Source: a virus
Taxonomy: Duplodnaviria > Caudoviricetes
Virus record (IMG/VR): IMGVR_UViG_3300032255_000017
Coordinates: 1 to 30,228 of that record
Reading direction: 5' to 3' (one strand)
Length of the DNA: 30,228 nt
The translations under genes and the position numbers were made by a program. The notes below the pieces were generated by a model. It was not told where the DNA came from. It worked only from the letters and a program-made list of their open reading frames with translations, and did not search any database. Positions 7,566 to 30,228 of the stretch are shown here, piece by piece; the first letter of the stretch is position 1; each line of letters starts with the position of its first letter.

Positions 7566-7812
7566 TTAATATAACCTCGATAAATCCATCGCCATCTGGT
7601 TGTAACTCGGCGATTTTGTAGGAACGCTCATTAATCACGACAACATCGTCAACTTTTATCGTGATACTATCTGAAACGGTTAACACCGGCTTATTGCCGG
7701 ATATTCGATTAGTTTCCACATAGACATACGAGAATAAGCCGGACACATTTTTGTTAGCAATGTTTGCTAAAACGTAGCCCGGCATATCTGGATCTATAAT
7801 TTCAGAAAACAT
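7558..7812 (-). CDS. Head-tail joining / head closure protein (gpFII-like)
   Basis: 84 aa, C-terminal YKIAELQPDGDGFIEVIL resembles FII-type joining proteins; position. Confidence 0.75.
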   Translation of the reverse strand: MFSEIIDPDMPGYVLANIANKNVSGLFSYVYVETNRISGNKPVLTVSDSITIKVDDVVVINERSYKIAELQPDGDGFIEVILNG

Positions 7813-7968
7813 TTATTTTTCAGATTTCACTTTCTTTTCAGATTTCACTTTCTCAGCGCGACCGCCGGATAATAGGTATGTCGCGTCTTTATCCGAGACA
7901 TCAACGATAGAATTAGCTTTACAGTGTTCACCTGCAATACCCATATCATGCTTAATTTTGATTTTCAT
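7813..7968 (-). CDS. Small head-associated protein, 51 aa (gpFI position)
   Basis: Manual translation MKIKIKHDMGIAGEHCKANSIVDVSDKDATYLLSGGRAEKVKSEKKVKSEK; AGGTG RBS; stop abuts the next ATG. Confidence 0.75.
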   Translation of the reverse strand: MKIKIKHDMGIAGEHCKANSIVDVSDKDATYLLSGGRAEKVKSEKKVKSEK

Positions 7969-7984
7969 AAATCACCTAAATAAG

Positions 7985-8009
7985 AAAAGCGCCGCGAGGC
8001 GCTTTATTT
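7985..8009 (-). terminator. Intrinsic terminator after the capsid gene
   Basis: AAAGCGCC-4nt-GGCGCTTT hairpin with T-rich tails on both strands. Confidence 0.75.
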
Positions 8010-8046
8010 GTAAATGTATCTTCCGGTTTTTTATAACTAACGAGAT

Positions 8047-9945
8047 CTAAGTGATCGCGTCTGCCATAACAGCAAAACTTTCAGGGTGACGAACAGCCAA
8101 ATCACAATCTTGAAATGCTGTAACTCGGATCGCGCCTTTGGTTGCTTGAGTGTATGGGTCAACTTGAACATCAAGACCGCCCCACATACCAATAATTAAG
8201 TCCGCGAAGTTGCCAAACATAATTGCCGAAAGGTTTGCACCCGTTCCCTTGGTTAAGTTGCTTGGCACTTGATTGGAGACAACTGCATCATAACCATTGA
8301 TCGGATTATCGCCGACCGCCCAAACAAATCGACCAGAACCGCTATCCAGCAATGTTTGCTTTAACGCACCTCTCACTTTCGTGTTTGTGAGGTAACAGAA
8401 ACGAGAACCAGCTACGTTTGCATTTGCGATTGAGCTTTCAAGATCAACAACATCAGCCCAGTCGGGAGCTGCGCCATTCGTTCCGCCAGCTATTGAACCG
8501 ATACCACTCTGATTCATAATGCCAAGAGGTTGATTACTCGCGCCGGTACCATTAATGCCAGCTTGGTCGATTGCGAGAGCAAGACGCATTGCTAATTCGT
8601 TTCGCACGAATGCTTCTGCTGAAATTGAACCTTGCAATAATAGGCGTCTCGAAATATCCGAAAACGCTCCAACCGTTTTAGGAGTTAGTGCTACTTGGTC
8701 GAATGTCGCGCTTGACTCGGTCGGTGCGCCATTTTCAGCAAGCCAAAAATGCGAGGCTCCACCGGTCTGTCTTGGAATAGCGATATTACCGTTAAGACCA
8801 TTTAGAATGGTTGCCCCACACTGAATAAGCGCCAGCGCATTTTCGAGCGATTCGATAAATGAACCGCTCAATAAATCCGTTGATACTAAATTGCCGCCAT
8901 CGGCAGCCGTTCCAACACTATAAGCGCGAGTTAGGACATCATAGGGGACCATCGCACCCTTTGACTCTTTTCCAGTTTTTTCAAGCGCCGCACTTGAGCA
9001 TTCTAATTCGAAAGCCGCAGCACGTTGAAGACCGACATCTTGCGGATTAGCAAGCGCGGTAATCAAGCGAGAAAATGAGTATCCGCCCTGCTCTTTTTCA
9101 GTCATCCCAATGTTTGGGTCTTCTGCTTTGGTCGGGTTCAATCCACCACGCTCAAGTACTGCTTGGTTAAAATCGTGTATGGATTTTCCTTCCGAGATCA
9201 TTTTTTCTGCAAGATCCTGCGCTTGATAACTTACACCTGCTTTCTGTAATTCAATTACTCGCGCGCGCTCTTTTTGCTCAGCTTCGTCTGCAGCGTTTTT
9301 ACGTTCCGCTTGAACGTCGATTTTTTCGATTTTGTCAGTCATTTTAGTTTCCTCATTGACTATAGGTTCATTGATAATTTCATCTTTTATTTTTTCGGTT
9401 TCTGATTTCGGCACACGCGCTTCAACCTGACGACCAACACCCACCGAAGGATCGGCGGCTACACTAACCAAAGAGACTTCGTAAGGCTGCCAATCTGTAA
9501 CGCGGTACAGATCTGCTCCATCCTCTCTCTCTTCGATTAATTTCATTTCGTTGACCATATAGCCAACTGATACTTGAGTTCTAATTCCGTCGATCACGTC
9601 TTGATAAATCTCTTCTCCACGTACCGATTTGCTGAATCGAACAACTGCACGCCCTCGCAAATCAGAATCGATCCGAACACTTTCGACAACTCCAATTTGA
9701 TCATCCCAATCGTGTCCAACTAGAAGCGCTGCACCTGTTTCCATACGAGATAAATCAACTTCTTTACCTTCATGGCCCAATACTTCATCACCAAACCATC
9801 GGCGGTAAGGTTCTTCGCTCGAAAACGCAATTTCAACGGTTCTCTTTTCTTCATCGTGCTGCATTTTTTCCAATAAAAAACCCCGCGATTGCGGGGCTTT
9901 TTTAAAGTCATCAAATTTTCTATCATTCTTAGGTTTCATCTTCAA
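8047..9945 (-). CDS. Prohead protease-major capsid protein fusion (HK97 fold); probable start ATG 9939
   Basis: N-terminal HK97-type protease motifs (LLVGHDWDDQIG, VSVGY, EVSLVSVAADPSVGVGR), charged scaffold-like linker, then capsid motifs (GGNLV, WLAENGA, FGNFADL, VRHPESF). Confidence 0.95.
   Translation of the reverse strand: MKMKPKNDRKFDDFKKAPQSRGFLLEKMQHDEEKRTVEIAFSSEEPYRRWFGDEVLGHEGKEVDLSRMETGAALLVGHDWDDQIGVVESVRIDSDLRGRAVVRFSKSVRGEEIYQDVIDGIRTQVSVGYMVNEMKLIEEREDGADLYRVTDWQPYEVSLVSVAADPSVGVGRQVEARVPKSETEKIKDEIINEPIVNEETKMTDKIEKIDVQAERKNAADEAEQKERARVIELQKAGVSYQAQDLAEKMISEGKSIHDFNQAVLERGGLNPTKAEDPNIGMTEKEQGGYSFSRLITALANPQDVGLQRAAAFELECSSAALEKTGKESKGAMVPYDVLTRAYSVGTAADGGNLVSTDLLSGSFIESLENALALIQCGATILNGLNGNIAIPRQTGGASHFWLAENGAPTESSATFDQVALTPKTVGAFSDISRRLLLQGSISAEAFVRNELAMRLALAIDQAGINGTGASNQPLGIMNQSGIGSIAGGTNGAAPDWADVVDLESSIANANVAGSRFCYLTNTKVRGALKQTLLDSGSGRFVWAVGDNPINGYDAVVSNQVPSNLTKGTGANLSAIMFGNFADLIIGMWGGLDVQVDPYTQATKGAIRVTAFQDCDLAVRHPESFAVMADAIT
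9875..9903. terminator. Bidirectional intrinsic terminator-like hairpin inside the 5' end of the protease-capsid gene
   Basis: AAAAAA-CCCCGC-GATT-GCGGGG-C-TTTTTT. Confidence 0.55.
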
Positions 9946-22919: not shown

Positions 22920-23138
22920 TTACGCCACCTTTTTTGTAATAAAATGCTCTACCATATCAGCATCGACCAACATTCCATTAGAATTTGCTACTAGCCTGCT
23001 CCATAAAGAATTTCTAGGCCTTCTATGGGCGAATAATAGATTGGTATTTATATATCCAACAGACGTACCACACAATTTCGCATATCTCTCTAAATCATTA
23101 TCAGTTAGTGATTTGATGTATTTCTTAAATTTTGTCAT
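22920..23138 (-). CDS. cro: Cro-like repressor
   Basis: 72 aa, YAKLCGTSVGYI HTH, GAGG RBS, divergent from cI. Confidence 0.85.
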   Translation of the reverse strand: MTKFKKYIKSLTDNDLERYAKLCGTSVGYINTNLLFAHRRPRNSLWSRLVANSNGMLVDADMVEHFITKKVA

Positions 23139-23155: not shown

Positions 23156-23184
23156 AGCTTAGCAAAATGCTATACTCTTTTCAA
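23156..23184 (-). promoter_or_regulatory. PR promoter with operator oR (AGTATAGC-ATTTT-GCTAAGCT, 23156-23176)
   Basis: TTGAAA-17 bp-TAAGCT; the palindrome spans the spacer and -10 and matches the PL operator. Confidence 0.85.
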
Positions 23185-23207: not shown

Positions 23208-23243
23208 GTAGCGAAAAATCTACATTCATTTATAATTCAGGAA
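23208..23243 (+). promoter_or_regulatory. PRM-like promoter giving a probably leaderless cI mRNA
   Basis: TATAAT at 23231-23236, 6 nt before ATG 23243; poor -35; no properly spaced RBS. Confidence 0.6.
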
Positions 23244-23857
23244 TGAAAGTTGAACTAACAGAAATACAGAAAATAAGGCATAAAAACCTTAGAATTCTAA
23301 TTGAATCTTTAGGGGATAAAGGGGCGACAAAGCTTGCAGACAAACTAAATAGAAAATCCACCCAAACAAGCCAGTTTGCTGGAGTAAAACCTTCTCGGGG
23401 TATTAGCGAAAAAATGGCTAGAAAAATAGAGTCAGCCTTCAATCTGGCTATGTTTTCGCTTGATTCGACTGATGATAAAAGCTTTGAAAGTCCTAATGTT
23501 ATTGATCATCGAAGAATGAAATTGGCATTAAAGCACGCAAGGATAGCGTTAACCGTTATGCCTAGTGAGAATGATGAAGATGAGCAGCTAGTTAGATTAA
23601 TGCTAAATCTTTACTCTGGGGATGACATTAAAACGCCTAGAGGGCCTGTTGGGTCAGAAAAAGAATTCATGGTCGCGGCAAGTTTGGAAGCTAGAGATAT
23701 TATGCAAAAAGTAATTGGAGAGCCTGGCGTAAAAATGAATGATGAAGAAGAAAGATCGATATACGCAACTGTTCTAAATGATATTTTCAATGAGTATATT
23801 AATTCTGGGAAAATAAACTCCGAATCTAAAAAATTATCTCCTAAAGTTCAAAATTAG
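23243..23857 (+). CDS. cI: CI-like repressor (HTH, no S24 peptidase domain), 204 aa
   Basis: IRHKNLRILI...LADKLNRKSTQTSQF...RGISEKMARKIE HTH typical of lambdoid repressors; the ORF-track TTG start at 23132 overlaps cro and PR so is unlikely. Confidence 0.85.
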   Translation: MKVELTEIQKIRHKNLRILIESLGDKGATKLADKLNRKSTQTSQFAGVKPSRGISEKMARKIESAFNLAMFSLDSTDDKSFESPNVIDHRRMKLALKHARIALTVMPSENDEDEQLVRLMLNLYSGDDIKTPRGPVGSEKEFMVAASLEARDIMQKVIGEPGVKMNDEEERSIYATVLNDIFNEYINSGKINSESKKLSPKVQN

Positions 23858-24149: not shown

Positions 24150-24446
24150 ATGATTGAAATAAACTTAATAATATCTTCTAGCGTTAGAACGAAATTAAAA
24201 GACAAACATAACGTAACGGAAGATGAAATTAAAGAATGCTTTGTAAATAAGCCAAAAGGTAAAGGGCAGCTCTTAGATAATAGAGCTGACCACAAAACTA
24301 ACCCGAAGACGATGTGGTTTATTTCTGAAACCGACAGGGAGAGAAAGCTAAAAATAGCTTGGATGAAAATGAAAGATGGCGCAGTAATAAAATCAGCGTT
24401 TGAACCAAACGAGACAGAAATAGGAATTTACGAAAGACATGCTTAA
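24150..24446 (+). CDS. BrnT-like (RelE-superfamily) toxin
   Basis: 98 aa; KHNVT..EIKECF, ETDRERKLKI, IKSAF motifs; toxin-first arrangement. Confidence 0.75.
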   Translation: MIEINLIISSSVRTKLKDKHNVTEDEIKECFVNKPKGKGQLLDNRADHKTNPKTMWFISETDRERKLKIAWMKMKDGAVIKSAFEPNETEIGIYERHA

Positions 24447-24472
24447 ACATAAAACAAGAACTGGAGAAAGCT

Positions 24473-24826
24473 ATGAATGACAAAATAGAAAGCACGTCAG
24501 AAGCTTGGGAATCAGGCGAATTAGGGCGAGAAGATGAGTTTGTCGAAAAGGCTGATTTAAGCGAAACTGATTATAATGAAGCTTTAGGCCTTCAAATGAT
24601 TTCTATTCGATTACAAAAAACTTTAATTGAACATTTAAAGTCATTTGCAAAAATACACAAATTAGGATACCAACCATTAATGAAAATAATCTTGCAAAGA
24701 TGGGTTGATGGAGAGCTAAAAACAATAGGGAACCAAATAATAGCAGAACGTTTGCACGAAATGGCTGAATTAGAAAAGCTTGATCAGGAAAGTCAACTAG
24801 AAGGCGAAGAACGTAAAACGGCATAA
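24473..24826 (+). CDS. BrnA/CopG-like ribbon-helix-helix antitoxin
   Basis: 117 aa; acidic N-terminus, MISIRLQKTLIEHLK...GYQPLMKIIL RHH motif; GGAG RBS. Confidence 0.8.
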   Translation: MNDKIESTSEAWESGELGREDEFVEKADLSETDYNEALGLQMISIRLQKTLIEHLKSFAKIHKLGYQPLMKIILQRWVDGELKTIGNQIIAERLHEMAELEKLDQESQLEGEERKTA

Positions 24827-25093: not shown

Positions 25094-25681
25094 ATGAATA
25101 AAATAATAATTGCGTTGTTTTTGTCGATTGCTTTTGTCGGCTGCGGTGGAAATATTGATTATGATAAGGCCGCCACCCAAACGGGCGTTGAACAGGAAAC
25201 CTTGAAGAGACTGTGTAAAGGTATTACCTGCAATTACGACGATCTAAAAGATAGAATAGAAGTAACGGCGAATGACGGCAACAGTTTTCTTACGGCTATG
25301 TCAGGAAACGAGAATAGAAAAATAGAGTTTACTTGGGTAAGTGGATGGGAAGAAATCGAGATAACTGTTTTTGACGTGTTTTTATATGGTTCGTGGCACT
25401 TTGATGAGTATGCCGAAATTTTCATAAATAAAGAAATGGTAGTGAAGATTGACGGCCAAGTTGATCGAATTGTTGGTAAGTATAACGACGTCGCCAGCGA
25501 CCATGAACAAATAGAAAAAGTTTCTAGAATGGTTAAAATATCAACAGCTAGAAGAATAGCTGAAGCAGATGCGTCAAAAATCACAATTAGATTTTATGGA
25601 AAAAAAGGGTATACGGATGTCAATCTAAGCGGAAGCAATAATTTAATACAAGCAGTAAAGCTTGCAGAAACAATGAGATAG
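25094..25681 (+). CDS. Lipoprotein (195 aa), moron-like; possible superinfection exclusion
   Basis: GGAG RBS, signal MNKIIIALFLSIAFVG-C lipobox; function is inference. Confidence 0.75.
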   Translation: MNKIIIALFLSIAFVGCGGNIDYDKAATQTGVEQETLKRLCKGITCNYDDLKDRIEVTANDGNSFLTAMSGNENRKIEFTWVSGWEEIEITVFDVFLYGSWHFDEYAEIFINKEMVVKIDGQVDRIVGKYNDVASDHEQIEKVSRMVKISTARRIAEADASKITIRFYGKKGYTDVNLSGSNNLIQAVKLAETMR

Positions 25682-25779: not shown

Positions 25780-26091
25780 ATGAAATTCAAGAACGTATGG
25801 AAGAATATTTTTTTACGTAATGCCAAGAAAGGTGGAGCGCTAGATTTAAATGTAACACTTAATTCTCATTCTAAACCAATAGATTTAATGGCGTACAAGA
25901 CATTAAAGAATACCTGCTATGATATGATGTTGGAAAGGTGGGCCATCGAGGCCATGGATGATAGTTTCCTTAAAAGCTCGTCATTGAGTGTTTGGTGGAG
26001 GCGCTTTCACATATTCACCTCGAACCATCCCGATTATTTCCCTCCGGCTAGATCCAGAAACGACATAGATAAAAAAACAAAGGTTGGGTAG
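25780..26091 (+). CDS. Hypothetical protein (103 aa)
   Basis: ATG 25780 preceded by AGGGA; stop abuts the convergent gene's stop. Confidence 0.6.
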   Translation: MKFKNVWKNIFLRNAKKGGALDLNVTLNSHSKPIDLMAYKTLKNTCYDMMLERWAIEAMDDSFLKSSSLSVWWRRFHIFTSNHPDYFPPARSRNDIDKKTKVG

Positions 26092-26358
26092 TTAATCAAG
26101 AAGCTCTTCCGCCTCAAACTGTGCGGTTATTAGAGAAAGAACGACATCATCAGGGTTTTGAGTACAATCAATAGACATAAAACGGTTAATGGCCGTATCC
26201 TTATTCCGGTCACTTTTCCTTTTTTCTTCAAAATCGACAGTCTCAACGTTCGCCAAATATATATTTTGGACGCTATTTATTATTTTTCTTGTTCTTATTG
26301 CTACGACGAAAATCAGCGTTAAAGAGCCGATTAAAGTTAATAATCCCAAAAACTCCAT
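26092..26358 (-). CDS. Single-pass membrane protein (88 aa)
   Basis: GAGGA RBS, N-terminal TM helix followed by basic residues; overlaps the upstream gene by 86 bp. Confidence 0.7.
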   Translation of the reverse strand: MEFLGLLTLIGSLTLIFVVAIRTRKIINSVQNIYLANVETVDFEEKRKSDRNKDTAINRFMSIDCTQNPDDVVLSLITAQFEAEELLD

Positions 26359-26812
26359 TAATTCCTCTTTTTAGATCTTTTCTATTAATTGTTTTCTTGT
26401 GAGGGTAAAAGCAAGCTCCTATAATTCCCGCGTTTAATAATATCATTCCTTGACGATAGAATCCCATTTTATAATCTTGAATATACCAAGCATCGATATA
26501 ACGTGCGGTTGCAAGTGCCACCACTCCAAGTAGTGCGTAAATCAAGTACATCTCGCTCTTTATGACTTCTTTTTGATAAGAATAGATAACAAAAGCAGTT
26601 ACCGCATGCAGTGCTCCAACGACGGGATAGAAAATATAGGACTGATACTCATGATAAAAAAGGTAAGGCTGTGAGGCAATACTAACAATAAAAAGTAAAC
26701 AAACGCTGGACGCAGTTACTAAATGAAATCTATCTATAAGCGCGAGGCAAAAGATCAATACGGCAGACAAAAGCCAGCCGTAATCGATCCATTCCATTAC
26801 CTCACTCCACAT
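26273..26812 (-). CDS. Polytopic membrane protein (~5 TM)
   Basis: Five hydrophobic segments; starts 2 nt after the peptide stop (alternative ATG 26797). Confidence 0.75.
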   Translation of the reverse strand: MWSEVMEWIDYGWLLSAVLIFCLALIDRFHLVTASSVCLLFIVSIASQPYLFYHEYQSYIFYPVVGALHAVTAFVIYSYQKEVIKSEMYLIYALLGVVALATARYIDAWYIQDYKMGFYRQGMILLNAGIIGACFYPHKKTINRKDLKRGINGVFGIINFNRLFNADFRRSNKNKKNNK

Positions 26813-26814
26813 TT

Positions 26815-26913
26815 CTAATCTTTTAGTTTGCTGTTGTTTTCAGATGGATCTGGTTCTGGAGTTGGGTCTGGCGGTTCCTGACCCCCACCCATTGAACAAA
26901 TGAAAGGTTTCAT
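26815..26913 (-). CDS. 32-aa peptide MKPFICSMGGGQEPPDPTPEPDPSENNSKLKD (not in ORF track)
   Basis: Strong AAGGAG RBS 7 nt upstream, own promoter, tightly coupled to the membrane protein gene. Confidence 0.75.
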   Translation of the reverse strand: MKPFICSMGGGQEPPDPTPEPDPSENNSKLKD

Positions 26914-26954
26914 ATTTAGTCTCCTTTTTATAATCACGTCACAATTAAAAATCG

Positions 26955-26983
26955 AATATAGCACCAATGTGTTTTTACATCAA
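26955..26983 (-). promoter_or_regulatory. sigma70 promoter of the peptide operon, back-to-back with PL
   Basis: TTGATG-17 bp-TATATT with extended -10 TG. Confidence 0.7.
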
Positions 26984-26986
26984 TAC

Positions 26987-27032
26987 AGTTTAGCGTTTTG
27001 ATATTGACCAAAGTTTAGCGTTTTGCTAAACT
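26987..27032 (+). promoter_or_regulatory. PL promoter with operators oL1 (27012-27032) and oL2 (26987-27007)
   Basis: TTGACC-17 bp-TAAACT; AGTTTAGC-GTTTT-GCTAAACT perfect palindrome; second copy AGTTTAGC-GTTTT-GATATTGA 25 bp upstream. Confidence 0.85.
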
Positions 27033-27378: not shown

Positions 27379-27681
27379 ATGGAAAAGGTAATCTATTTGG
27401 AGGATGTCGCTGAGCTTTGCGGAATTAAGCCGGCCACTGTTCACAACTACATGCGGGAAGGTATTTTGCCCTACCCTACCAATCATAAGGCTGCTCGCAA
27501 TGTGAAAAAGTATTGGCTTGCGAAAAATGTAAATAAGTACCTTCACCTCGTCGAAGAGTACCAAAAAGAGAATAAAATACGTGGCCCAAGACCTAAAACC
27601 ATTGAACTCACCAGCAAAACAGATCCTTGGGCAGACGCGAACAAGGCGTTTGATTTGTCGGTTAGAGCAAAAGCCCAATGA
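27379..27681 (+). CDS. AlpA/MerR-type HTH DNA-binding protein
   Basis: LEDVAELCGIKPATVHNYMREGILPYP...KYW motif. Confidence 0.8.
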   Translation: MEKVIYLEDVAELCGIKPATVHNYMREGILPYPTNHKAARNVKKYWLAKNVNKYLHLVEEYQKENKIRGPRPKTIELTSKTDPWADANKAFDLSVRAKAQ

Positions 27682-28556
27682 AGTCTGCTCTTTATACCGC
27701 CACCATCCTACTTTGCGCTTTGTCGGCGTTCTGCTCAGTCCTATTGTGGGTTTCTGAACAAAATACGGTAGAAGCCAAGGTTTTGTTTGGTGGCTTCGCG
27801 CTCGGCTTAGAATTGTGTAAGTTTGCGTTCTTTCCAATGGCCGCAAAACTGAAAGGTATCCTATCTGCAGGGTTGTACTCGATCGCGTTTGCGCTCTTAT
27901 TATTATCTATTACAGCAACCGTCTCATTATTAGAAACGGGCGCTATCAATAATTTGAGCCAAGCGCGTATCAGTTCGGAGATTTATCAATCAGAAAGGTC
28001 GAATATTGAAAGTATTAACGTTGAGATCAAAACTCTCCAAGCGTTAATCAAAGAGGACGTCAAGAACGGTTATAGGGCGAGAGCTTTGTCCCAAGGCGAT
28101 AAGTTGGCCAAGCTAAGGTCGACAAGGACGCAGGCCGTAAACATCCTTTCTAGTATTAACGTTATACCAGATAGTGGTATTCATTCCATTTTCCGATCAT
28201 TGGCCAAACTGTTTGATAGTAATGATAAGGCCGTTCGCTTTTGGGTGTATGTCGTTCTAGCAGTTGCGATCGACATTTGCGGTATTGCTTGCCTGATGCT
28301 GATTAATTCCAACGCAATAAACCCATTACGCGTTATTTCGGGTGAAATAATGAAAAGTAATGCTAGTAAATCAAAAGATCCTAACCGAATTAAACAGGAT
28401 ATTGCATCGGGTATTTATGGGGATTATCCGGTGATGACTAAGGTCATGGAAAAGGCGGGTATCCGCCACCCTAAAGCAAAAGAGATATTTCAGCAGTTAT
28501 TAGACGACGGCTCATTAATGCAAATAGGTCGTAAGTATGAGTTAGCTGGAATATGA
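27678..28556 (+). CDS. Membrane protein: 3 TM + coiled coil + TM + C-terminal winged HTH
   Basis: Hydropathy pattern; C-terminus VMEKAGIRHPKAKEIFQQLLDDGSLMQIGRKY. Confidence 0.75.
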   Translation: MKSALYTATILLCALSAFCSVLLWVSEQNTVEAKVLFGGFALGLELCKFAFFPMAAKLKGILSAGLYSIAFALLLLSITATVSLLETGAINNLSQARISSEIYQSERSNIESINVEIKTLQALIKEDVKNGYRARALSQGDKLAKLRSTRTQAVNILSSINVIPDSGIHSIFRSLAKLFDSNDKAVRFWVYVVLAVAIDICGIACLMLINSNAINPLRVISGEIMKSNASKSKDPNRIKQDIASGIYGDYPVMTKVMEKAGIRHPKAKEIFQQLLDDGSLMQIGRKYELAGI

Positions 28557-28884: not shown

Positions 28885-29108
28885 TGTTTTTAAGTCGAGA
28901 TGAAATCAAAGAATTGACGGGCTACACTTACAAGGCACATCAAAAGCAATGGCTCATTGAAAGTGGTTATAAGTTTAGTGTTCGGTGTGATGGATTCCCT
29001 TGTGTCCTTCGCTCACATGTCGAGCGAGTATTAGGCGGGGTTGTTACGCAAACCGTAAAAAATGAAACGCCCGATTTTGAGGCGTTACGGAAGATAGTTA
29101 ATGGCTAA
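28878..29108 (+). CDS. Excisionase-like protein (DUF4224 type)
   Basis: FLSRDEIKELTGY...Q..WL...G......DG.P.V...PDF motif; overlaps int. Confidence 0.85.
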   Translation: MLMFLSRDEIKELTGYTYKAHQKQWLIESGYKFSVRCDGFPCVLRSHVERVLGGVVTQTVKNETPDFEALRKIVNG

Positions 29109-30111
29109 AAAATACCCAGCACGGTGGACGCAAAAGCACGGCGCATTCTATTATGTTGTGCCCCCCGGAGAGCGAGCAAGATTTGAAGGTAAGTCTTGGT
29201 ATCGGCTTGGCTCTAATGAAGCAGAAGCCTATCAAGAATGGGCGAAGTTATTAGGCGACTACGAACGCTCGTATAGAGTTATGGAAAAATTGTTTGACCG
29301 TTATATGGCAGAAGTGGCCCCTGCAAAAGCTGCCGCCACCTATCGCAATAATCAAATACAAATACAAAAGTTACGAGCTTTCTTCGGTAAGATGTCACCA
29401 ATGGGCGTTAAACCAATTCATATTTATCAGTATATGGATATTCGAAGTAAAACACCGGTCGCAGCTAATCGCGAAATAGCCCTTCTCTCGCACGTATTTA
29501 CTAAGGCGATCCGATGGGGTGCAATTGAATACAATCCTTGCGTCGATAAGAAAATAGAGCGTAATACCGAAAAGGCACGCGATCGATATGTCACGGACGA
29601 AGAATTTGCCATTTTTTATAATGATTTTGCCGGAGAATTTCTTCAATCCTATCTGTCTGTTAAATATTTGTTAGGTTTGAGAAAATCAGATGTATTGAGA
29701 ATTAAGGTCTCAGACTTTAATGACGTCGGTATCAAAGTAAAAGCTGGAAAAACCAAAAAGAAATTAACGATTAGCTGGACACTAGAATTACGCGAAGCTG
29801 TTGACAAGGTTATGTCGATAAAGCGAAAGATTGGATCGATTTATCTATTTTCTACGCGAACAGGTAAATGCTACGTTTCTGAAAAAGGTAAAACATCTGG
29901 CTTCGACTCCGTTTGGCAAAGACGAATGAGGCAGTTTGTTGAGGCTGGTAATGTGCGGTTTAATGAGAACGATATACGGGCTAAAACGGCGAGCGATACA
30001 GACGCAAAACATGCTCAAGAATTACTGCAACATTCATCGATAGAATTCACAGAAAGGGTTTATCGACGCAAAGAAAAAGTCGTTTCTCCAATCACTAAAA
30101 AGGCTAAATAG
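29101..30111 (+). CDS. int: Tyrosine integrase
   Basis: 336 aa; ANREIALLSHVF, GLRKSD, KT, NDIRAK, LQH, VYRR; next to the tRNA att site. Confidence 0.95.
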   Translation: MAKKYPARWTQKHGAFYYVVPPGERARFEGKSWYRLGSNEAEAYQEWAKLLGDYERSYRVMEKLFDRYMAEVAPAKAAATYRNNQIQIQKLRAFFGKMSPMGVKPIHIYQYMDIRSKTPVAANREIALLSHVFTKAIRWGAIEYNPCVDKKIERNTEKARDRYVTDEEFAIFYNDFAGEFLQSYLSVKYLLGLRKSDVLRIKVSDFNDVGIKVKAGKTKKKLTISWTLELREAVDKVMSIKRKIGSIYLFSTRTGKCYVSEKGKTSGFDSVWQRRMRQFVEAGNVRFNENDIRAKTASDTDAKHAQELLQHSSIEFTERVYRRKEKVVSPITKKAK

Positions 30112-30149: not shown

Positions 30150-30176
30150 AAAAAAGCCCCCATTGCTGGAGGCCTT
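30150..30176 (-). terminator. Terminator downstream of the tRNA 3' end
   Basis: Imperfect GC hairpin followed by T6 on the minus strand. Confidence 0.55.
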
Positions 30177-30181
30177 ATATA

Positions 30182-30228
30182 TGGTGGGTCGTGGGCGATT
30201 CGAACGCCCGACCAATTGATTAAAAGTC
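30182..30228 (-). tRNA. tRNA-Lys(UUU) 3' half (anticodon arm to CCA); att core
   Basis: Reverse complement GACTTTTAATCAATTGGTCGGGCGTTCGAATCGCCCACGACCCACCA: TTT anticodon, T-loop, CCA; the 5' half is outside the window. Confidence 0.93.

Follow-up and report, generated by a model that had tools for sequence, protein, structure and literature searches.

A candidate peptide–receptor cassette in the immunity region of a lambdoid phage, with relatives in other phages and chromosomes of marine gammaproteobacteria

Communication of phages by peptides is established for Gram-positive hosts. In the arbitrium system of Bacillus phages (AimP/AimR/AimX), the peptide precursors carry signal peptides, some of them with repeated cores, and the cytoplasmic TPR receptor AimR is encoded by an adjacent gene. 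The staphylococcal agr system combines the membrane peptidase AgrB, with an invariant catalytic dyad His77/Cys84, and the precursor AgrD, which has an N-terminal amphipathic leader of 24–25 residues, a ring-forming Cys that is conserved and lies five residues away from the cleavage site, as well as a C-terminal tail that is charged (PMC10482373). Searches of paper listings and abstracts, in a collection outside of which most subscription journals lie, found no report of peptide communication in Gram-negative phages and no description of the cassette family considered here among the papers listed.

The window, that is, the whole stretch of 30,228 nucleotides analysed, is a lambdoid prophage or phage contig according to profile searches and gene order. 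Its left part includes terminase, portal, capsid and tail genes (named by eye), with the replication genes next; rightward of the latter follow cro, a cI-like gene, the cassette, the pL operon and the integrase gene. The DNA sequencing runs that contain the locus are microbial mat metagenomes, and no RNA dataset is listed among them; comparison with DNA contigs of four runs revealed a few scattered differences only. The features of the region are as follows.

22920–23138: cro.
23159–23172: operator-like site between cro and cI, matching the oL repeats.
23243–23857, plus strand: CI-like repressor of about 203 aa, the predicted target.
25780–26091, plus strand: soluble 103-aa protein, on the cI strand and convergent on the cassette.
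26092–26358, minus strand: single-pass protein of 88 aa, its C-terminal domain small and soluble; the predicted transducer.
26273–26812, minus strand: membrane protein of 179 aa with five helices, from an unannotated family; the predicted receptor.
26815–26913, minus strand: ORF of a 32-aa peptide with core GGGQEPP and an acidic Pro-rich tail, the predicted ligand precursor.
26921–26925, minus strand: AGGAG, the ribosome-binding site, located 7 nt ahead of the peptide ATG at 26913.
26955–26983, minus strand: putative promoter TTGATG-17-TATATT with an extended -10 (upstream TG), nine of 12 consensus positions.
26987–27003 and 27012–27028: two 17-bp operator-like repeats, oL2 and oL1, recognised by sequence.
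27004–27032: divergent pL-like promoter, its -35 box flanked by the oL2 and oL1 repeats.
29101–30111: integrase.

The operon proposed in the earlier note, with its promoter-like site, ribosome-binding site, 32-, 179- and 88-aa ORFs and convergent 103-aa gene, was confirmed, as was the 3-bp spacing between the cassette -35 box and oL2, the proximal repeat. The 179-aa ORF starts 2 nt after the 32-aa ORF and is overlapped by the 88-aa ORF by 86 nt; the stop codon of the latter abuts the convergent 103-aa ORF. The cassette promoter taken alone is at chance level, with 19 such sites found against 17.5 ± 3.9 in shuffled sequences. The ORFs are more than a chance arrangement, because their order and the operator palindromes are kept in three further lambdoid phages, where the palindromes stand just upstream of the small ORF.

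These phages, L002, L005 and L088, were found using profiles of the membrane protein and its neighbours. L088 is a prophage of Aliikangiella coralliicola M105, and L004, which appears to be the same phage as L002, was left out of the comparison. A full HMMER scan of 1.84 billion representatives yielded four homologues of the membrane protein at 30–32% identity; single-sequence searches with it gave no match in the word-indexed protein set, viral contigs, genome contigs or GenBank phages. In the ESM Atlas, the membrane protein fell into unnamed clusters at 0.91–0.93 with low recognition, and the 103-aa protein had no match. The membrane proteins of L002, L005 and L088 are 22–32% identical to that of the window. 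The gene order is common to all four phages and includes operators, a small ORF, the five-helix gene, the overlapping single-pass gene, the convergent 103-aa gene, cI and cro; the 103-aa gene is kept in each of them, and the CI-like repressor is likewise kept in the clade. The small ORFs encode 32, 36, 14 and 37 aa in the window, L002, L005 and L088, respectively. The peptides have an acidic-proline core in common, while the glycine run is replaced (Q-D-P-P in L002, Q-D-P-D in L005, G-S-D-P-P in L088), so the core is loose within the clade. A Cys precedes the core in three of the four phages; it is absent in L005 and from most other cores.

Several other genes were observed around the cassette. 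Between cI and the cassette, the window contains a toxin-antitoxin-like gene pair at 24150–24826 (CopG_antitoxin, E 6.7e-6; PHROGs 18652 and 17810) that is missing from L002, L005 and L088; in phage L195 a different pair of similar look takes the same position. A predicted lipoprotein without family match is also encoded between cI and the cassette, at 25094–25681 in the window and at 7790–8332 in phage L173, and gp8 of phage ACA1, a membrane protein, occupies the equivalent position. The pL operon of the window includes a gene at 27678–28556 for a 292-aa multi-pass and coiled-coil protein with an HTH-like C-terminal end, which reached no family at the cut-off. Beyond the integrase, an apparent partial tRNA gene lies at the window end (30160–30228) and is probably the attachment site; it is not called by ARAGORN because the gene is cut off by the window end.

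The earlier note modelled the peptide and the membrane protein on AgrD and AgrB, a model that fails on comparison with homologues. The H-x7-C and GALHA motifs on which it relied are present in the window sequence but not conserved: His30 is His in two of 42 homologues, the Cys38 column is mostly L, V, F or I, and the His69 column is mostly Asp (20 of 42). None of 20 family members scanned reached the cut-off of any Pfam or NCBIfam family, AgrB included, and none matched the AgrB model at E 0.1. An AgrD-type leader was rejected, as five residues only precede the Cys of the window peptide. The tail of this peptide, acidic and then basic, has the charge of the AgrD tail, a feature that is not specific. 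No histidine kinase or response regulator was detected among 18 neighbouring proteins scanned, and HisKA_7TM gave E 0.26, below the cut-off, in one of six members. The cassette resembles agr in that a small precursor gene with a charged tail adjoins a multi-pass membrane gene of similar size. It differs in the absence of the His/Cys dyad, the leader, the conserved ring Cys and the adjacent kinase and regulator, in having five helices as compared with six for AgrB, and in its Gram-negative hosts. Judged by its sequences, the cassette is unrelated to the agr system. The five-helix protein is better read as the predicted receptor, which the earlier note could not identify, than as a peptidase.

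The family of the five-helix protein, which occurs in marine gammaproteobacteria, is unannotated, and the protein reaches no Pfam, PHROGs or NCBIfam family at the cut-off. A profile of the 103-aa protein gave two weak matches (E about 7e-4 and 1e-3) in 401 genomes of the Aliikangiella order. Both fell on chromosomal cassettes, arranged in tandem and facing an HTH gene. The chromosomal cassette consists of a small ORF, a five-helix gene and an overlapping single-pass gene, and its membrane proteins align with those of the phages with a profile probability of 78% (E 1.8e-5, 136 columns). The joint profile matches 27 of 61 genomes of one bacterial family, where the membrane protein family is chromosomal and syntenic, and 34 of 401 genomes of the order, a count that includes the genomes from which the profile was built and one false match (G293, L169), rejected by eye as an unrelated phosphatase-like protein. 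The class-wide search, in which at most nine candidates were scored per genome and sensitivity was lower, gave matches in three of 401 genomes, two of them weak. As a check, the clade of the window was left out and a profile was made from 36 other members; it gave the window protein 47.8 bits and its five relatives 21–34 bits, as compared with no more than 9.5 bits for 600 shuffled sequences and no more than 7.1 bits for about 2,900 other ORFs.

The best-kept alignment columns (n = 42) are W61 (29), Y62 (35), W65 (27), R104 (31), D/E107 (40), Y119 (30) and N127 (27). A structure model of the membrane protein has five helices and a mean pLDDT of 63.9. A wide fold search with this model retrieved generic helical bundles (Z at most 9.4), and neither AgrB nor any specific family was among the best 50. 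By the positive-inside rule, the basic C-terminal tail of the protein should be cytoplasmic, so that the conserved aromatic residues and those of Arg-x-Ile-Asp/Glu would face the periplasm. A rhomboid or rhombosortase identity was rejected: one of 20 members matched, with E 0.06 and 13 bits against a cut-off of 84, and His69 is not conserved. This weak match and a rhombosortase-like gene beside chromosomal cassettes were both judged to be chance. In the chromosomal loci L100 (7728–10876) and L101 (7681–10823), the peptide, five-helix and single-pass genes form a tandem duplication that is convergent on a gene for a 129-aa HTH protein and divergent from the rhombosortase-like gene; cassette copies reach three in genomes G125 and G243.

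The five-helix protein could instead process or export the peptide as AgrB does, using other chemistry, for example Asp/Glu107 together with Asn127, with the receptor located elsewhere. The strict adjacency and translational coupling of the two genes, the conserved polar residues in or near the membrane and the need of leaderless peptides for a route out would all suit such an enzyme or exporter. We nevertheless regard this role as rather improbable, given that no residue is invariant among the 42 aligned members and that Asp and Glu alternate at position 107. Moreover, relatives of the peptide already have Sec-like or double-glycine leaders, and the tandem arrays of L157 and L165, with several membrane genes per peptide, fit receptors better.

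A single-pass gene follows most members of the five-helix family and is missing in some chromosomal ones. In the lambdoid prophage L173 the five-helix and single-pass parts are fused (L155, 1135–1983). In profile comparisons, the 88-aa protein showed detectable similarity neither to the 103-aa protein nor to the single-pass proteins of chromosomal cassettes; the 103-aa protein itself weakly resembles the soluble part of the single-pass proteins encoded in the chromosomal cassettes (hhalign probability 50%, E 1.7e-4).

The earlier note predicted a conserved core in small ORFs upstream of the membrane protein homologues, and this prediction holds, as a small ORF with a GG-x-EP-type core is co-conserved with the family. 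Such an ORF is found upstream of 30 of 48 membrane genes and one of 87 control genes (36 of 48 and three of 87 with a looser core motif); the motif was drawn from the same data, about half of the rows belong to a single closely related group, and five rows without upstream DNA were left out. Among the 12 misses, L002, L088 and L168 have a peptide on inspection, and five are inner or later copies in tandem arrays. No peptide was found upstream of four family members (L161, L162 and two in L163). In the reverse direction, three scans of viral contigs with the peptide motif alone gave at least 319 loci, flanks being taken for 80 loci in each of two scans. The motif lies inside a small ORF in at least 93 of these loci. 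At least 10 of the small-ORF loci adjoin a multi-pass gene, and at least nine rows, representing at least six distinct viral cassettes, score 37–71 bits with the family profile, the family gene always being directly downstream of the peptide. One other family match occurs among 3,086 ORFs of the listed matches, and it is phage L002 itself. The scan with the exact GGGQEPP motif gave at least 119 loci with no cassette among the matches listed, which counts against our preferred reading; the DNA pattern for Cys-Ser-Met-Gly-Gly-Gly gave no viral locus and one chance match inside another gene. The chromosomal peptide L119 has GGGQEP, like the window.

The precursors vary in the segment preceding the core. 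Signal-peptide-like leaders were recognised by eye in L120–L125, L157, L195 and L219; in L120, L121, L123, L124 and L125 the leader is followed by five to about 14 tandem cores. Leaders of double-glycine type were assigned by eye to L166, L167 and gp5 of ACA1. Peptides of L156, L159, L160, L164 and the clade of the window are leaderless. In L165, a single peptide is followed by four consecutive membrane genes. That leaders without relation to each other precede the same core suggests that the peptide is released. In the window peptide the core is preceded by only eight residues, and an export leader is absent, which counts against a released signal in this phage. As to other details of these loci, the chromosomal type of L120, L121, L123, L124 and L125 lies between an rsmI-like gene and an rnpB-looking RNA gene (by eye), and leaders resembling the flagellar-export type of FlgM (by eye), followed by one to three cores, were seen in L158 (1996–2334), L165 (1153–1359) and L479.

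The Gly-rich cores of L166, L167 and ACA1 gp5, their double-glycine-like leaders and a weak TIGR01847 match are also what a microcin-like antibacterial peptide would offer, the membrane proteins then being its immunity proteins. Toxin-immunity pairs usually diverge fast, and the core here is about 7–10 residues long, acidic and alike across distant lineages. No dedicated exporter was seen beside the cassettes examined, and the window peptide has no such leader. A microcin is an improbable explanation on these grounds. Another explanation makes the small ORF a cis-acting leader, in which translation of the membrane gene would be governed by ribosomes pausing at Glu/Asp-Pro-Pro, the peptide as such being inert. 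Motifs of the acidic-Pro-Pro type stall ribosomes without EF-P; acidic-Pro-Pro or Pro-Asp is the best-kept feature within the clade, and in the window, L002 and L088 the end of the ORF and the next start lie a few bases apart at most. In the relatives, however, leaders resembling signal peptides and repetition of the core are found, and the peptide and the membrane gene may be as much as about 165 nt apart, so that we consider a purely cis-acting ORF very improbable.

Of 12 phage cassettes, taken from lambdoid, P2-like (ACA1/C5a) and Mu-like phages, 11 face a repressor gene or a short gene of HTH type, namely those of the window, L002, L005, L088, L173, L174, ACA1/C5a, L195, L219, L241 and L479; the first four form one clade, and the count covers cassettes of this family alone. 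The exception is L488, where no facing repressor was seen. In four of six cassettes found by the motif, a 144–163-aa HTH-like gene is faced within 1.8 kb (by eye). In the Mu-like prophage L174 the cassette abuts the repressor gene, and in C5a it faces the annotated repressor at 2 kb. In the cultured P2-like phages ACA1, ACA2 and C5a, the trio corresponds to the hypothetical proteins gp5–gp7, facing the immunity repressor. One chromosomal cassette type likewise faces an HTH gene; many chromosomal members have no adjacent HTH gene, which counts against our preferred reading. The position in the immunity region is by itself weak evidence, because immunity regions gather lysogen-expressed genes of any kind.

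The window CI consists of an N-terminal DNA-binding domain and a helical C-terminal domain and matches a PHROGs repressor (E 5e-8). It has no S24 match, in agreement with the non-cleavable CI of the earlier note; the S24 domain is absent from all seven phage repressors scanned and from one chromosomal HTH protein. No exact match to the SOS pattern tested was found near the cassette. The C-terminal domains of the P2-like and Mu-like phage repressors do not match that of the window, and homology of these domains across phage groups is not demonstrable; the window domain is weakly similar to the chromosomal HTH protein (probability 27%, 21 columns). The data do not support an internal repeat within the C-terminal domain of CI. 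In ACA1, the repressor lacks an autoproteolytic domain; the phage has a distinct S24 protein as well as an antirepressor (PMC10612066), the latter of 186 type. With an S24 protein and a 186-type antirepressor of its own, ACA1 has no need of the cassette for induction.

The genomic placement also bears on a reading without any signal to the repressor. Being divergent from pL and pointing at cI, the cassette occupies the site of lambdoid exclusion genes such as sieB and rexAB; the window has the toxin-antitoxin-like pair and the lipoprotein in this interval as well, and similar insertions are found in L173 and L195. A lysogen-expressed exclusion or anti-phage module would be in keeping with this, its membrane proteins blocking or aborting superinfection and the peptide restraining them. 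Against it stand the chromosomal and syntenic occurrence of the family in 27 of the 61 genomes mentioned above, and the multi-copy precursors of exported type, which an intracellular inhibitor would not need. We therefore consider an exclusion module unlikely.

Our preferred reading is that the peptide and the five-helix protein are a ligand–receptor pair, and we regard this part as probable. We propose more tentatively, as a nearly even prospect, the whole chain, in which the operon provides a peptide ligand, a membrane receptor and a transducer that acts on the non-cleavable repressor; the role in lysis-lysogeny is suggested by gene context. The operon would be expressed in the lysogen from the promoter beside the leftward operators. 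The core peptide would leave the cytoplasm for the periplasm or the medium; the relatives would use Sec or double-glycine export, and the window phage, for which the missing export leader is the main weakness of the reading, another route, possibly release at lysis. Outside, the peptide could bind the outward face of the five-helix protein at the conserved Trp/Tyr and Arg-x-Ile-Asp/Glu residues, and the single-pass partner would then change its hold on the C-terminal domain of the repressor. We speculate that the soluble 103-aa protein is a cytoplasmic counterpart, perhaps opposing or copying the single-pass relay. Induction or lysogenisation would shift with peptide concentration.

The three genes of the system have no profile in Pfam, NCBIfam or PHROGs. 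With more doubt, we suggest that it may represent an undescribed Gram-negative system in which a linear GG-x-EP peptide would act through a five-helix receptor and a transducer of single-pass type, and which lambdoid, P2-like and Mu-like phages each took up and wired to a non-cleavable repressor, with the chromosomal version of the host being audible. If true, it would provide a new receptor type and peptide signalling for Gram-negative phages, as well as a non-SOS route for the control of prophage repressors in the sea. The proposal is testable now: the cassette is present in the cultured phages ACA1, ACA2 and C5a and in A. coralliicola M105, and synthesis of so short a core is feasible.

Among the described systems, Rep of the Salmonella phage SPC32H and the repressor of phage 186 resemble the window repressor in lacking S24 and in needing a partner for inactivation, a need that is predicted for the window repressor. 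The window repressor is weakly similar to PDB 5d50, which we take to be SPC32H Rep, in the DNA-binding domain only (E 0.0023); the candidate partner here, in contrast, is membrane-anchored. Class II bacteriocins and microcins share with some relatives a double-glycine-like leader and a small membrane neighbour. The window has no such leader, the conserved core is very short and acidic, and no adjacent exporter was seen; the leader had no Pfam match, and the ACA1 record holds a weak HHpred match of gp5 to TIGR01847. In ACA1, ACA2 and C5a, gp5 has the core, gp6 scores 47 bits with the family profile and gp7 is single-pass, the differences from the window being the P2-like type of phage and the double-glycine-like leader; gp5, gp6, bacteriocin and quorum are not mentioned in the main text of PMC10612066. 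As for arbitrium, no AimR-like TPR receptor lies beside the window peptide gene, and the signal peptide of arbitrium type, absent from the window peptide, is present by eye in relatives. The candidate receptor here is a membrane protein, and the hosts are gammaproteobacteria. Like arbitrium, the cassette would bias lysis-lysogeny by means of a phage-encoded short peptide.
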